Shown in pieces: positions 6,117-48,327 of a stretch of 64,000 nt of DNA. The notes beneath the pieces are model-generated. The model was not told the origin of the DNA. It made no database searches and worked only from the letters and a program-made list of their open reading frames with translations. The stretch spans positions 499-64,498 of the forward strand of contig CANQDX010000003.1 in assembly GCA_947594065.1 (NCBI GenBank), in the 5' to 3' direction. The translations under genes were made by a program, and so were the position numbers. The DNA is from an uncultured Clostridia bacterium. Its GTDB lineage: Bacteria; Bacillota; Clostridia; TANB77; CAG-508. Position 1 is the stretch's first letter. Each line of letters begins with the position of its first letter.

Positions 6117-6974
6117 ATGAATAATTTATTAGAAGAAACAAAGTTTATTTTAAAAAAATATGGAATTTCAGCCAATAAAAGCTTAGGACAAAATTTCTTA
6201 ATTAATGAAGAAGTAATTAAGAAAATGATAGAAGGAGCTGAAGTTTCTAAAAACGACCTAATTATTGAAATTGGACCTGGCTTGGGCACATTAACTAAAG
6301 AACTTCTAGAAAAAGCAGGAAAAGTAATTGCAATTGAACTAGATAAAAGAATGATAGAAATATTATCAGATAGATTTGCTTTATACACAAATTTTGAACT
6401 TATTAACCAAGATGTTTTAAAAGTAAATCTAAAAGAATTAATTTCTAATAATAAAATTCAAAATGGAACAGTAAAAATTGTTGCAAATTTGCCATATTAT
6501 ATAACAACACCAATTATAATGAAATTATTAGAAGAAAAGTTAGAGGTTGAATCTATTACAGTAATGGTGCAAAAAGAAGTTGCAGATAGACTAATAGAAA
6601 AACCAGGTGGCAAAAATTCTGGAGCAATTACCTATTCTGTTTACTATTATGCAACATCAGCTAATATTATAGAAGTAATGCCAGAATCCTTTATACCAGA
6701 GCCTTCTGTAGAATCTGAAGTAATCAAACTAACAATTAGAAAACAAGTACCTGTACAGATACAAAACGAAGAACTTTTATTTAAAATAATAAAATATGCA
6801 TTTATGCAACGAAGAAAAACATTGGTAAATGCATTAGAAAAAAGTGGAATATTTAATTCCAAAGAAGAAATTATAAAGATTTTAAAAAAATTAAACCTAA
6901 ATGATAGGGTAAGAGGAGAAGCGTTGTCCCTAGAAGATTATGCTAATATTACAAATCTCGTAACAAAAATGTAA
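6117..6974 (+). CDS. rsmA: 16S rRNA dimethyladenosine transferase
   Basis: LGQNFLINEEVIKKMIE...IIEIGPGLGTLT...VANLPYYITTPII... (KsgA/RsmA signature). Confidence 0.95.
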   Translation: MNNLLEETKFILKKYGISANKSLGQNFLINEEVIKKMIEGAEVSKNDLIIEIGPGLGTLTKELLEKAGKVIAIELDKRMIEILSDRFALYTNFELINQDVLKVNLKELISNNKIQNGTVKIVANLPYYITTPIIMKLLEEKLEVESITVMVQKEVADRLIEKPGGKNSGAITYSVYYYATSANIIEVMPESFIPEPSVESEVIKLTIRKQVPVQIQNEELLFKIIKYAFMQRRKTLVNALEKSGIFNSKEEIIKILKKLNLNDRVRGEALSLEDYANITNLVTKM

Positions 6975-7021
6975 AGAAAAAATAATATTATTTTAAAGCA
7001 AAATGTCGAAATAGTATATCC

Positions 7022-7073
7022 GTAAACGAAAAACAGACCTTTTTTAGAAAAAAGTCTGTTTTTTGGCGTTTAC
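7022..7073 (+). terminator. rsmA terminator (nested hairpin)
   Basis: Inner stem AAAACAGAC..GTCTGTTTT plus T6/A6 followed by a T-run. Outer stem GTAAACG (7022-7028) / CGTTTAC (7067-7073). Confidence 0.75.
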
Positions 7074-41609: not shown

Positions 41610-41957
41610 ATGTTAGCAGAAGAAGTTATTATTAAACCAATTGTTACAGAAAAAAGCAGTAGCGAATTAGAGCAAGGAAAGTATACCTTTAAAGTAAATA
41701 AAAAAGCAACAAAAGTTGAAATTGCAAAAGCTGTTGAAAAACTTTTCGAAGTTAAAGTATTAAATGTAAATACAATGACAGTTAAAGGAAAAGAAAAAAG
41801 AGTAGGAGCACATACAGGAATGACACCTGATTGGAAGAAAGCAATTGTTACAATTGACACAAATCCAGGAGATAAAACATACTTAGGAAAAGGCGGAAAA
41901 GAAGTTAAGATTTCTAAGAAGTATAAGGAGTCTATTGACGAATTTATGGGTGCTTAG
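41610..41957 (+). CDS. rplW: 50S ribosomal protein L23 (with ~20-aa C-terminal extension)
   Basis: KPIVTEKSS...KYTFKVNKKATKVEIAKAVEKLFEVKVLNVNT...KKAIVT. Confidence 0.93.
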   Translation: MLAEEVIIKPIVTEKSSSELEQGKYTFKVNKKATKVEIAKAVEKLFEVKVLNVNTMTVKGKEKRVGAHTGMTPDWKKAIVTIDTNPGDKTYLGKGGKEVKISKKYKESIDEFMGA

Positions 41958-41964
41958 AAATGAT

Positions 41965-42064
41965 AAGCGTCGTCTAACTTCGTTAACCTTCGGATAAAAA
42001 TATAATCAACGTACAATAGTACGTCTCATATATTTTTGCCTCGGTTGCCTCGTTATACTCGCTT
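41965..42064 (+). repeat. Structured intergenic element, copy 1 (rplW-rplB spacer)
   Basis: AAGCG..CGCTT closing stem; 9-bp AT stem 41996-42004/42029-42037; internal loop AUCA/CUCA; 6-bp stem ACGTAC/GTACGT. Homologous to 48167-48271. Confidence 0.6.
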
Positions 42065-42247
42065 CTAATTTCTAAGCAATTCAAGAAGTAAGTAATATGC
42101 TACTTTTACTACATCTTAGGTAAACCAAAAGAAATATCGGGAAAGACCCCGGAAAATAAAGAATAGCTGTTATGCGGAGCAGGAAAAATATCCGTAAATA
42201 AAAAAAGAAAGAGAACGTATCAAAAACAAGTATTGCTAGGCATTTGA

Positions 42248-42296
42248 AATATTAATCGACGAGACAGTACTTGTGTACGTCGAGACGATTAATATT
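42248..42296 (+). other. Long hairpin in the rplW-rplB spacer
   Basis: AATATTAATCG (42248-42258) / CGATTAATATT (42286-42296) with inner TCGACG/CGTCGA pairing option. Confidence 0.55.
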
Positions 42297-42351
42297 GAAA
42301 ATAACGACGCAAGACGCAGTTTTTCATACGTTCGAGAAAGGAAAAGTAAAA

Positions 42352-43179
42352 ATGGGAATGAAACACTTCAAAGCCTATACCCCATCAAGAAGAAATATGA
42401 CTGTTTCAACATTTGAGGAAGTTACAAAGAAAACTCCTGAAAAAACTCTACTTGCTAAAAAGAAGAAAAATGCAGGAAGAAATTCTGGCGGTAGAATAAC
42501 AGTTAGACATCAAGGTGGAGGAAATAGACAAAAATATAGAATAATTGATTTTAAAAGAAATAAAGACAATATGTTTGCAACAGTTATGGGAATTGAATAT
42601 GATCCAAACAGAAGCGCAAATATTGCATTATTAAAATACGAAGATGGAACATTAAGTTATATTATTGCTCCACAAGGATTAAAAGATGGAGATAAAGTAA
42701 TATCTGGAGATAAAGCAGATATTAAACCAGGTAATTGTATGTCAATTGAAAATATTCCAGTTGGTACAATGATACACAATATTGAATTAAATCCAGGTCA
42801 AGGTGCAAAAATGGTTAGAGCAGCAGGTCAAGCAGCACAATTAATGGCAAAAGAGGGAAAATTCTCTCACGTTAGATTACCATCAGGAGAAATGAGACTT
42901 GTTTTAACAAGATGTAGAGCTACAATAGGAACAATAGGAAACAGTGATCACGAAAATGTTAATTTAGGTAAAGCAGGAAAAACAAGACATTTAGGAATTC
43001 GTCCAACTGTTAGAGGTTCTGTAATGAACCCAGTAGATCACCCTCACGGTGGTGGTGAAGGTAGAGCACCAGTAGGACATAGTGGACCATTAACTCCTTG
43101 GGGCAAACCAGCACTTGGATATAAGACAAGAAAGAAAAATAAACAATCTAACAAATTCATAGTAAAAAGGAGGAAATAA
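42352..43179 (+). CDS. rplB: 50S ribosomal protein L2
   Basis: [14 protein letters not shown]...[15 protein letters not shown]...HPHGGGEGR. The upstream part of the tracked ORF (42271-42351) is non-coding spacer. Confidence 0.96.
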
Positions 43180-47612: not shown

Positions 47613-48152
47613 ATGTCAAGAATAGGAAATAAACCTATTACTATACCAGAAGGTGTAGAGGTAACAGTTGCAGACAAATTAGTTACAGTAAAAGGTCCAA
47701 AGGGTACATTAAGTAAAGAAATTCATAAAAATATGAACGTTACAGTAGATGGCAATGTTATTAAAATCTCTAGACCAGATGATGAACCAGCAAATAAAAG
47801 TCTACACGGCTTAACAAGAACATTAATCAATAATATGATTTTAGGTGTAAAAGAAGAATTTAAAAAAGAATTAGAAATTAATGGTGTTGGATATAGAGCT
47901 CAAAAACAAGGAACAAAGCTTGTTATGAACTTAGGATATTCACATCCAGTAGAAATGGCTGCTCCAGAAGGAATAACTTTTGACGTGCCAAATCCAAACC
48001 AAATCATTGTAAGAGGAATTGATAAAGAGTTGGTAGGTCAAACTGCAGCTGTTGTAAGAACAAAAAGACCACCTGAAGTGTATAGAGGAAAAGGTATTAA
48101 GTACGTTGATGAGGTTATTAGGCGTAAAGAGGGTAAAGCTGGTAAAAAATAA
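47613..48152 (+). CDS. rplF: 50S ribosomal protein L6
   Basis: MSRIGNKPITIPEGVEV...GVGYRA. Confidence 0.97.
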   Translation: MSRIGNKPITIPEGVEVTVADKLVTVKGPKGTLSKEIHKNMNVTVDGNVIKISRPDDEPANKSLHGLTRTLINNMILGVKEEFKKELEINGVGYRAQKQGTKLVMNLGYSHPVEMAAPEGITFDVPNPNQIIVRGIDKELVGQTAAVVRTKRPPEVYRGKGIKYVDEVIRRKEGKAGKK

Positions 48153-48166
48153 AATGTAAACAAATG

Positions 48167-48271
48167 AAAAGCGGCATCTTGCGTCGTTAAACTTCAAATT
48201 TAATTTAATCAACGTGCAAAAAGCACGCCTCATAAATTAAATTTTCGTTTGCCTAGCAATATACCACTTTT
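48167..48271 (+). repeat. Structured intergenic element, copy 2 (rplF-rplR spacer)
   Basis: AAAAGCGG..CCACTTTT closing stem; 11-12-bp AT stem 48196-48207/48233-48244; internal loop AUCAA/CCUCA; stem CGTGC/GCACG. Homologous to 41965-42064. Confidence 0.6.
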
Positions 48272-48327
48272 GCTTTGTTTAATAATTTAGAAAGAATGAA
48301 AGATTTGTAAGGAAGGGAGAGAGAATA

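Follow-up and report, generated by a model that had tools for sequence, protein, structure and literature searches.

A palindromic, ERIC-like intergenic repeat family in operons of uncultured gut Clostridia

The ribosomal protein (r-protein) operon on a 64,000-nucleotide (nt) stretch of DNA from an uncultured Clostridia bacterium (CAG-508 lineage; contig CANQDX010000003.1, positions 499 to 64,498), hereafter called the window, contains two similar hairpins, one after rplW and one after rplF, which a sequence-only reading had taken for a functional RNA or protein-binding motif of r-protein spacers. We conclude with high confidence that these hairpins are copies of a palindromic intergenic repeat family resembling the enterobacterial repetitive intergenic consensus (ERIC), and not a motif specific to r-protein genes. 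The family is apparently undescribed; its kind is known from ERIC, the repetitive extragenic palindromes (REP), Correia elements and RUP. The reading that we favour overall, and regard as probable, is that of an ERIC-like hairpin repeat that derives from a mobile element, is transcribed within operon mRNAs and is selectively retained there. By analogy, and with moderate to low confidence, we propose that it acts on the flanking cistrons through processing, stability or translation termination. Many operon junctions are occupied, and the r-protein spacers of the window account for three of them.

Both hairpins were present at the sites first proposed (41965 to 42064 and 48167 to 48271) and had the layout that had been described, namely a closing stem, an AT-rich helix, a 4x4 internal loop (UCAA opposite CCUC or CUCA), a GC helix and a small loop. 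Pairwise alignment gave 78% identity over about 160 nt, and the GC helices, ACGUAC/GUACGU in one copy vs CGUGC/GCACG in the other, differ in a compensatory manner. When folded as plus-strand RNA, copies 1 and 2 reached −27.3 and −32.7 kcal/mol (z = −5.4 and −4.4), values matched by 0 of 200 dinucleotide shuffles, and the reverse complements folded better than the plus strands, at −33.4 and −47.2 kcal/mol. The flank pattern GCGTCGTNWAACTTC occurred twice in the window vs 0.19 occurrences expected. The view that the similarity is not due to chance was supported. The GCGTCGT flank of copy 1 is out of register with that of copy 2, and the family alignment places UUGC/GCAA against UAAC/GUUA. A covariance model of the family extended the element to about 127 nt, longer than had been proposed (41951 to 42078 and 48155 to 48282), and detected exactly three copies in the 64 kb (122, 97 and 88 bits), the next matches being on the opposite strand at 22 bits and then noise. 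Copy 3, which the sequence-only reading had missed, was seen initially as an inverted-repeat pair (48159 to 48189 vs 42302 to 42332). All three copies lie within the S10-spc operon, and they are listed here with the landmarks of copy 2.

41951 to 42078, minus strand (the covariance model matched this strand, the better-folding of the two): repeat copy 1, 88.3 bits, E = 5.6e-18.
42211 to 42336, plus strand: repeat copy 3, covariance model 96.8 bits, E = 5.7e-20, seen also by alignment and folds.
48155 to 48282, minus strand: repeat copy 2, covariance model 122.1 bits, E = 5.8e-26; opposite strand 21.9 bits.
48178 to 48189, plus strand: conserved 5' core of copy 2, CTTGCGTCGTTA, the 5' half of the UUGC/GCAA helix and the GUCGUUA strand of an asymmetric internal loop, from family alignments and fixed by the search pattern in the seed copies.
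48209 to 48231, plus strand: apical module of copy 2, made of UCAA, stem CGUGC, loop AAAAA, stem GCACG and CCUC.
48250 to 48259, plus strand: conserved 3' core of copy 2, TGCCTAGCAA, the UGCCUA strand of the asymmetric internal loop and the 3' half of the UUGC/GCAA helix (pair table UA:120, GC:119, CG:120).

The true start of rplB is the ATG at 42353, which is followed by the conserved N-terminus MGMKHFK (the list of open reading frames (ORFs) has TTG 42271), and the rplW-rplB spacer is therefore 395 nt long. It houses copies 1 and 3 in opposite orientations. Copy 1 is read in the rplW-rplB mRNA in the weaker-folding, sense-type orientation, and the rplW stop codon TAG (41955 to 41957) lies inside its outer arm. 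This copy belongs to a variant subfamily in which UAAC/GUUA replaces UUGC/GCAA, and its nearest relative, at 0.84 identity, is the orthologous copy after rplW in locus L012 (L numbers denote the homologous loci). Copy 3 runs opposite to copies 1 and 2, so that its better-folding strand is the mRNA strand, and its 3' end lies just upstream of the rplB Shine-Dalgarno sequence GAAAGGA and the ATG at 42353. Orthologues of copy 3 precede rplB in L012 and L093, and spacer sequence related to it is found in L047, where the match is weak and partial, and in L072. Copy 2 occupies most of the 175-nt rplF-rplR spacer, where it is sense-type in the mRNA and begins 2 nt past the rplF stop codon TAA (48150 to 48152). 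The same junction is filled in L063, in L061 and in Lactococcus hircilactis (L078).

Homologous loci were collected with a search pattern of TTGCGTCGTTA and, 45 to 75 nt further on, TGCCTAGCAA, which was scanned against one genome per species. At least 118 loci in these species-representative genomes matched the two-block pattern, and nearly all of the listed loci came from uncultured Clostridia, Eubacteriales or 'Clostridium sp.' metagenome-assembled genomes (MAGs) of rabbit, chicken, ruminant, mouse and human guts. Carriers include Clostridium sp. CAG:508 and Candidatus Scatovivens, and single MAGs have the repeat on several contigs. The same architecture was found in Listeria rustica, L. 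rocourtiae, L. cornellensis, L. newyorkensis and Lactococcus hircilactis, and also in Marinilabilia salmonicolor, a Bacteroidota species; a pattern match in a Campylobacter MAG (L121), having no covariance-model match, was set aside as chance. The covariance model (R1), built from 42 diverse copies over 127 positions, detected 129 copies in 709 kb of seed-centred loci, about 28 of them beyond the seeds. One r-protein locus (L012) held five copies within 8 kb, and nhmmer found 149 copies.

The family had no counterpart in the databases searched. Rfam 15 gave no match at the gathering score over the whole window, solely a chance mir-5880 match at E ≤ 10 in 41900 to 42400, and solely an M-box adjoining the element in seven homologous loci. 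The M-box, a Mg2+ riboswitch at 6882 to 7052 of the Listeria rustica locus L006 (133 bits), adjoins a repeat copy at 6766 to 6889 and lies on the same strand as the better-folding strand of that copy. No copies were found in plasmids, phages or IMG/VR viral contigs, and blastn with word size 11 gave no match in 5,426 complete genomes of Escherichia coli, a carrier of ERIC. In the full-text literature both 12-nt core strings occurred in no paper and matches to shorter strings were unrelated, while a keyword search returned only general papers on REP and on miniature inverted-repeat transposable elements (MITEs).

In the mRNA-sense orientation of most copies, and from the outside inwards, the element begins with a variable outer stem of 6 to 10 bp (e.g., AAUUUGAAAAA / UUUUUCAAAUU), followed by a subfamily-specific second stem (AAUAAUCAGCAUC / ...AUAUACUAAUU), the helix UUGC/GCAA and an asymmetric internal loop in which GUCGUUA stands opposite UGCCUA. 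Above this loop are one or two AU-rich stems whose sequence varies freely, an apical internal loop, which in about two thirds of copies is UCAA opposite CCUC(C/A), and an apex formed by a GC stem, CGURC/GYACG, with a loop of 4 to 5 nt. The apical motif of copy 2 recurs in about 80 of 120 homologues, its helix covarying between GUAC, GUGC and AUAC, and at least four types of apical module were distinguished. Unpaired strands are conserved, as had been claimed, although the AAUCAA/CYUCAU loops on which that claim was based are kept in some apical subtypes only.

The most conserved part of all detected copies is the basal asymmetric loop, YCGUUA / UGCCUM in the sense orientation. The core blocks are invariant in the seed copies because the pattern required it; more divergent copies that the model recovered (window copy 1, the copy upstream of rplB in L047 and the 'GGCWAGGCR' subfamily) retain the loop, and they alter the helix next to it by compensation, as in the UAAC/GUUA of copy 1. 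The two strands of the loop are neither mutually complementary nor at the base of the stem, and the asymmetric loops are shared by copies from Clostridia, Bacilli and Bacteroidota. Information content was at background beyond about 25 nt from the core. Known loop motifs did not fit on inspection: neither register of UAGGCA / UAACGAC, on either strand, offers the G.A and A.G positions that a K-turn needs, and the G.A positions required by loop-E-like and UAA/GAN readings are likewise absent. A mini-ORF in the 5' arm, MK(I/S)xILRR*, was also rejected as a family feature, as it occurs in an ATG-containing subclass and is absent from the majority class, which has ATA for ATG; it is probably fortuitous. 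In the window such mini-ORFs are MKSGILRR* in copy 2 (48165 to 48191, plus strand), MISVV* in copy 1 (41962 to 41979, plus strand) and one in copy 3 (42300 to 42338, minus strand). Diverged sister subfamilies, without the GUCGUUA/UGCCUA loop or with altered cores (UUGGCWAGGCR ... RCAACRRCGCCAA), were observed in the rplF-rplR spacers of L029 and L070 and at L116 3015 to 3110, L091 5164 to 5254, L056 1078 to 1151 and L037 2055 to 2151; the superfamily is therefore wider than the search pattern captured.

The covariation of the stems that had been noticed between two copies held throughout the family. RNAalifold predicted 32 pairs from 120 copies, and 28 of the 32 showed double compensatory changes. 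Among these 120 homologues 93.4% of cells were paired, vs 72.0% after column shuffles and 37 to 46% when the partners were slid, and double-change cells numbered 761 vs 214 in column shuffles. The covariation score was 0.542, compared with 0.163 for column shuffles and 0.08 to 0.13 for slid partners. Stems also differed by several compensated changes between sub-groups of orthologues.

We examined the position of the copies relative to genes, which were called crudely as longest ORFs. In 104 of 149 copies (about 70%), the element lies between co-directional genes with its better-folding strand antisense to both; the better-folding strand is sense to both co-directional genes in only 9 of 149. 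In about 85% of the copies in the common configuration the upstream stop codon ends 7 to 28 nt before GCGTCGT, with peaks at 10, 17 and 22 to 25 nt, and hence lies inside the outer arm or abuts it, which in turn places the element within the operon mRNA. The consensus 5' arm itself carries TAA/TGA/TAA, with stops in two frames, and in some species the native TAA of an ABC-ATPase orthologue has become GAA, the ORF then running 2 to 4 codons into the element. The distance to the downstream start had a median of about 45 nt (interquartile range 29 to 123). In the minority configuration, where the better-folding strand is the mRNA, the element ends 5 to 25 nt before a Shine-Dalgarno sequence and ATG, as at rplB (window, L012 and L093), def (L005), pyrG (L027 and L076) and two further cases.

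The genes upstream of the repeat are housekeeping members of operons. They encode an ABC ATPase (11 copies), L14 and an amino-acid kinase (5 each), L6, L23, RpoB and CarA (4 each), and L10, the transketolase N-terminal part, DivIVA and KhpA (3 each). Other filled junctions include rpoB|rpoC, rplJ|rplL and carA|carB, and in Listeria a chitinase gene lies upstream. The idea of a motif belonging to r-protein spacers was not upheld, as more than 80% of sampled copies follow non-r-protein genes. Within the r-protein genes the recurrent junctions are rplW|rplB, rplN|rplX, rplF|rplR and rpsN|rpsH, and the S10-spc-alpha cluster accounts for 19 of the 118 listed loci (about 16%), an approximately 20-fold excess over the 0.75% or so of the genome that we estimate the cluster to occupy. 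A TATAAT-like hexamer occurred at one flank position in just 23% of copies, with no −35 element and with flank information of about 0, and a promoter scan around copy 2 found none. An intrinsic (Rho-independent) terminator was rejected as an identity for the element, given that no terminator-like site was found on the plus strand at any window copy and that a single weak one lies on the minus strand inside copy 1, where the apical hairpin is followed by a U-rich arm.

In 115 of 119 copies the common mRNA-sense orientation folded less well than its reverse complement, with means of −36.8 vs −48.2 kcal/mol. The loops are largely responsible for this difference: on the opposite strand UCAA/CCUC becomes GAGG/UUGA, which in the predicted fold can form tandem G.A pairs and two G.U pairs. 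In the basal loop, by contrast, the sense strand has a U.G pair where the other strand has a C.A mismatch. Departures from Watson-Crick pairing in the helices were of the G.U type (on the better-folding strand) in 125 cases vs 76 of the A.C type. A bona fide RNA helix would give a far stronger excess of G.U, and both types are as expected of a DNA palindrome. Since both are common, the covariation demonstrates that the arms are kept complementary and not which strand is selected, and by itself it is no proof of RNA function. The eight reversed copies had a mean fold of −33 kcal/mol on the mRNA strand; in the common configuration the transcribed strand folded at about −34 and the untranscribed strand at −46 kcal/mol. 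This suggests a ceiling on the hairpin stability tolerated in mRNAs and hence a selective cause of the orientation bias (n = 8).

Several observations point to duplicative spread. The rplN|rplX spacer is 36 nt long and empty in the window, and 164 to 194 nt long and filled in five species. At rplF|rplR, L090 has a spacer of 24 nt and the window one of 175 nt. Paralogues within one genome reach identities of 0.90 to 0.95, compared with a median of 0.67 for random pairs, and nearest neighbours are often paralogues in the same genome; the two rplW|rplB copies of the window, however, have orthologues in L012 and L093 as their closest relatives. Rearranged forms were also seen, namely three head-to-tail copies after one stop codon (L064 7463 to 7845), arrays of a unit of about 184 nt built of partial copies (L027 6000 to 6600 and L076 7350 to 7610), an internally deleted copy with the two arms joined directly (L051 5646 to 5725), and inverted pairs in L005, L012, L085 and the window (41951 and 42211). 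The L005 pair flanks an ORF that resembled a REP-associated tyrosine transposase (RAYT), a candidate that was dropped when its sequence was read as peptide deformylase on the other strand. A separate observation concerns the rplN-rplX spacer of L070 (about 90 nt), which holds a short perfect hairpin, CTAAAACGA(A)TGAAAA-tcggca-TTTTCATCGTTTTAG. It looks as if the repeat's outer 5' arm alone had been folded back. The 3' arm is exactly complementary to the 5' arm and unlike the 3' arm that is usual in the family, and the hairpin could be the footprint of a template-switch deletion or a pre-existing target hairpin.

To measure constraint, copies at orthologous sites in five groups were aligned with gaps, and their identity was compared with that of third codon positions in the upstream gene.

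ABC group: element 0.88, third codon positions 0.70, whole coding sequence 0.86.
g2 group: element 0.96, third codon positions 0.77, whole coding sequence 0.91.
g3 group: element 0.96, third codon positions 0.87, whole coding sequence 0.94.
g4 group: element 0.95, third codon positions 0.72, whole coding sequence 0.89.
rplN group: element 0.72, third codon positions 0.65, whole coding sequence 0.83.

In four of the five groups the element, its 'variable' interior included, changes more slowly than largely synonymous sites, and orthologous copies in these four groups are therefore under constraint. Like the covariation of the helices, this constraint is among the points that support the earlier reading, which was borne out in part.

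Taken together, the data are best accommodated by a non-autonomous repeat of mobile-element origin that would have proliferated in low-GC uncultured gut Clostridia of the CAG-508 / Ca. Scatovivens type, with sporadic occurrence in Listeria sensu lato, Lactococcus hircilactis and Marinilabilia, and that presumably spread by copy-and-paste, tandem duplication or gene conversion. In the operon mRNA it would fold, from the stop codon onwards, into a long hairpin with interruptions, and selection may keep copies because this hairpin acts in cis on the transcript. As judged from ERIC and REP, its role could be that of an intercistronic determinant of stability or processing, or of a structure opened by terminating ribosomes, and the orientation bias could reflect poor tolerance within mRNAs of the opposite orientation, which is very stable (about −46 kcal/mol) and has GGAGG-like loops. 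Several observations weigh against this proposal. As G.U- and A.C-type departures are both common, the pairing constraint is not clearly strand-specific and could act on DNA, and in about 90% of co-directional cases the best-folding strand, with its RNA-like G.A and G.U features, is antisense to the genes; the RNA role is an argument from analogy only. As to a mobile origin, comparison of filled and empty rplN|rplX and rplF|rplR spacers revealed no clear target-site duplication, the flanks being AT-rich and the species very diverged. Nor were conserved terminal inverted repeats (TIRs) found, the ends being complementary within copies and least conserved family-wide, and the 120 loci, each up to 8 kb long, showed no cognate transposase. 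Unlike classical TIR-MITEs, the repeat has its most variable part at the termini and its conserved block in an internal, asymmetric position. Finally, the margin in the rplN group is small (0.72 vs 0.65) and the element there falls below the whole coding sequence (0.83).

The main rival account holds that the element is a single-stranded-DNA hairpin substrate comparable to attC, REP/RAYT or IS200/IS605-like elements, in which the strand antisense to most genes forms the hairpin, a recombinase or HUH nuclease reads the asymmetric loop and orientation is set by the direction of replication and not of transcription; we regard it as unlikely. In Bacillota genes and replication are co-oriented, and the better-folding strand, which is the same in 115 of 119 copies and mostly antisense to the flanking genes, would accordingly be the leading-strand template. 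Furthermore, attC sites and IS608 ends conserve a structure plus a short motif and leave other sequence free; the repeat likewise conserves its structure and a short asymmetric internal motif. G.T-type and A.C-type intermediates are both common, and the inverted pairs (window, L005, L012 and L085) are like those of bacterial interspersed mosaic elements (BIMEs). However, the attC core sites are absent and the occupied sites are housekeeping operons and not cassette arrays, neither a GTAG nor the 20- to 40-nt REP format is present, and the loci showed neither a Y1 transposase nor an integrase, the lone candidate ORF flanked by inverted copies being peptide deformylase. Inverted copies have been kept in one and the same r-protein operon in different species, which argues that orientation is not strictly tied to replication, and no copies turned up in the plasmids, phages and IMG/VR contigs searched. 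Alternatively, the repeat could be a purely selfish or neutral MITE whose arms are kept complementary by template switching or gene conversion in quasi-palindromes, with the stop-codon position as the only surviving place in short operon spacers. Arm-to-arm copying predicts that G.U- and A.C-type departures are both frequent, as they are; stops in two frames of the 5' arm can replace a gene's own stop, as in the TAA to GAA change of the ABC ATPase; empty spacers are just 24 to 36 nt long; and tandem and deleted derivatives occur. The sequence-only reading had held that many copies scattered at random would point to a plain MITE or REP element, and we did find many copies, arrays and deletions; the sites, however, are not random: copies stand at stop codons within operons, share one orientation and are over-represented in the r-protein cluster. 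A neutral origin fits poorly with the conservation of orthologous copies, interior included, above third codon positions, and with the maintenance of asymmetric loops across Clostridia, Bacilli and Bacteroidota, as arm-to-arm copying would erase the asymmetry. The orientation ratio of 104:9 and the roughly 20-fold r-protein excess among listed loci (with the genome share estimated) also speak against it, and we consider it decidedly unlikely.

Two further alternatives have much less to commend them. A functional antisense strand, serving as a one-way barrier or terminator for antisense transcription or as a cis-antisense RNA, would account for the 11 to 12 kcal/mol by which that strand folds better on average, for the terminator-like apical hairpin and U-rich arm of copy 1, seen on the minus strand only, and for the enrichment of copies in highly expressed operons. 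Copy 2, however, has no terminator-like site, the U-tracts after the apical stem read as poor, and no promoter is positionally conserved (TATAAT-like hexamers in 23%, flank information near zero), all of which makes this role very unlikely. A dedicated regulatory RNA or protein-binding motif of r-protein operons, such as an autogenous r-protein site, is improbable in the extreme. It is true that all three window copies lie in the S10-spc operon, that 19 of 118 listed loci fall in the r-protein cluster, and that rplW|rplB, rplN|rplX and rplF|rplR recur, the last being filled even in the distant Lactococcus hircilactis. Nevertheless, more than 80% of copies follow unrelated genes (ABC ATPases, rpoB, carA, transketolase, divIVA, khpA and others), and close relatives differ in which junctions are filled, the window having an empty rplN|rplX spacer and L090 an rplF|rplR spacer of 24 nt. 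Both orientations are represented, and Rfam gave no match to an r-protein leader. This genome-wide distribution largely refutes an r-protein-specific reading and led us to reject an r-protein autoregulatory leader, the copies standing beside non-ribosomal genes and filling junctions patchily.

A bolder version of the retained, transcribed repeat is that the element has become a domesticated, orientation-specific 'punctuation' module of operon mRNAs, read by a conserved host factor; this we advance tentatively, as a possibility that we doubt. The factor might be an RNase, an RNA-binding protein or the terminating ribosome, and it might see YCGUUA / UGCCUM together with the anti-Shine-Dalgarno-like CCUC(C). 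Such a module could conceivably determine how stable neighbouring cistrons of core operons (r-proteins, rpoBC and carAB) are relative to one another, or how strongly each is translated, with a recognition logic that may be common to Clostridia, Listeria, Lactococcus and a Bacteroidota species. If this is true, the element would stand for a widespread and hitherto undescribed class of cis-regulatory RNA with the spreading behaviour of a mobile element.

Whatever their mode of action, the repeats account for unusually long spacers in the otherwise compact operons of a large clade of uncultured gut Clostridia. They should be masked or modelled in annotation, as the C-termini of upstream ORFs are lengthened or supplanted by them and as they invite confusion with riboswitches or leaders. 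Their extreme orientation bias, the stop codon in the hairpin, variable ends around a conserved asymmetric loop, conservation above third codon positions and marked over-representation in operons of the highest expression are traits that classical MITEs lack, and presence across phyla is unusual for this class of repeat. The repeats therefore offer a good system for distinguishing a domesticated intercistronic RNA element from a single-stranded-DNA mechanism. Cultured carriers are Listeria rocourtiae, L. newyorkensis, Lactococcus hircilactis DSM 28960 and Marinilabilia salmonicolor JCM 21150.

Two other features of the window deserve mention. A separate two-hairpin motif lies at 42128 to 42200 (plus strand), between copies 1 and 3 in the rplW-rplB spacer. 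It consists of P1 (CGGG-AAAGAC-CCCG), the linker GAAAAUAAAGAAUAKCUG and P2 (GCGGA-GCAGGAAAAAUA-UCCGU), and it was found upstream of rplB in seven species (the window, L012, L093, L044, L047, L072 and L018). Compensatory double changes occur in 5 of 10 pairs, the loop GCAGGAAAA is invariant, and no Rfam match was obtained at E ≤ 10. Judged from its sequence, it is a candidate for an undescribed leader or regulatory RNA within the S10 operon, and it is probably the r-protein-operon-specific element of the rplW-rplB site. Elsewhere, at about 7000 to 31000, two very large paralogous regions contain blocks 82 to 93% identical at an offset of about 11.4 to 13.1 kb. Their tandem units of 600 to 650 bp and runs of a 9-bp repeat (CCAGATAATCCAAGCAAT...), which would give Pro-x-Asn-type tripeptides if in frame, likely belong to genes for giant repetitive surface proteins.

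Among known systems, the attC sites of integrons (the Vibrio cholerae repeats of about 120 nt) resemble the repeat in length, in lying in one orientation between co-directional ORFs, in conserving structure while leaving sequence free, and in having the best-folding strand antisense to the ORFs. The repeat differs in having no R''/R' core sites (RYYYAAC / GTTRRRY), no cassette arrays and no integrase, and in occupying housekeeping operons; on the absence of the R''/R' boxes from the sequence and on the nature of these sites we rejected an attC identity. To our knowledge, integrons are essentially unknown in Bacillota. REP elements and BIMEs are likewise extragenic palindromes at the 3' ends of genes in operons, transcribed and sometimes in inverted pairs, and according to Liang, Rudd and Deutscher in 2015 REP reportedly influences mRNA stability, and also translation when it is near a stop codon. 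In contrast to REP, which is 20 to 40 nt long, begins with 5' GTAG and is linked to RAYT, the repeat is about 127 nt long and has no conserved GTAG, and no RAYT gene was seen in the 120 loci examined.

Correia/NEMIS and RUP share with the repeat a size of 100 to 200 bp, a non-coding nature, long hairpin transcripts and filled as well as empty sites, and bacterial MITEs may overlap ORF ends or provide them (PMC2229807). Correia and RUP have conserved TIRs and TA target duplications, and RUP a parent insertion sequence, none of which was found here. Compared with bacterial MITEs as characterized by Delihas (2008; PMC2229807), the repeat is small, non-coding and multi-copy, has a stem-loop of its 5' and 3' ends, and shows presence and absence at orthologous sites together with near-identical paralogues, whereas conserved TIRs were not observed. 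The closest likeness is to ERIC, also called the intergenic repeat unit (IRU): both are imperfect palindromes of about 127 bp in many dispersed copies, with a long mismatched stem-loop and compensatory evolution of the arms, and both sit in transcribed intergenic regions of operons. For the arms of ERIC, such compensatory evolution was reportedly described by Wilson and Sharp in 2006. ERIC (127 bp) is co-transcribed with its flanking genes and has an orientation-dependent effect on the stability of the upstream mRNA (PMC2229807). The two families have no sequence similarity, as judged by the blastn search of the 5,426 E. coli genomes, and occur in different phyla, and the short TIRs and TA duplication of ERIC are not seen in the repeat. 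What sets the repeat apart from ERIC is its variable termini around a conserved internal asymmetric loop, its 104:9 orientation bias and the stop codon that usually lies inside it.

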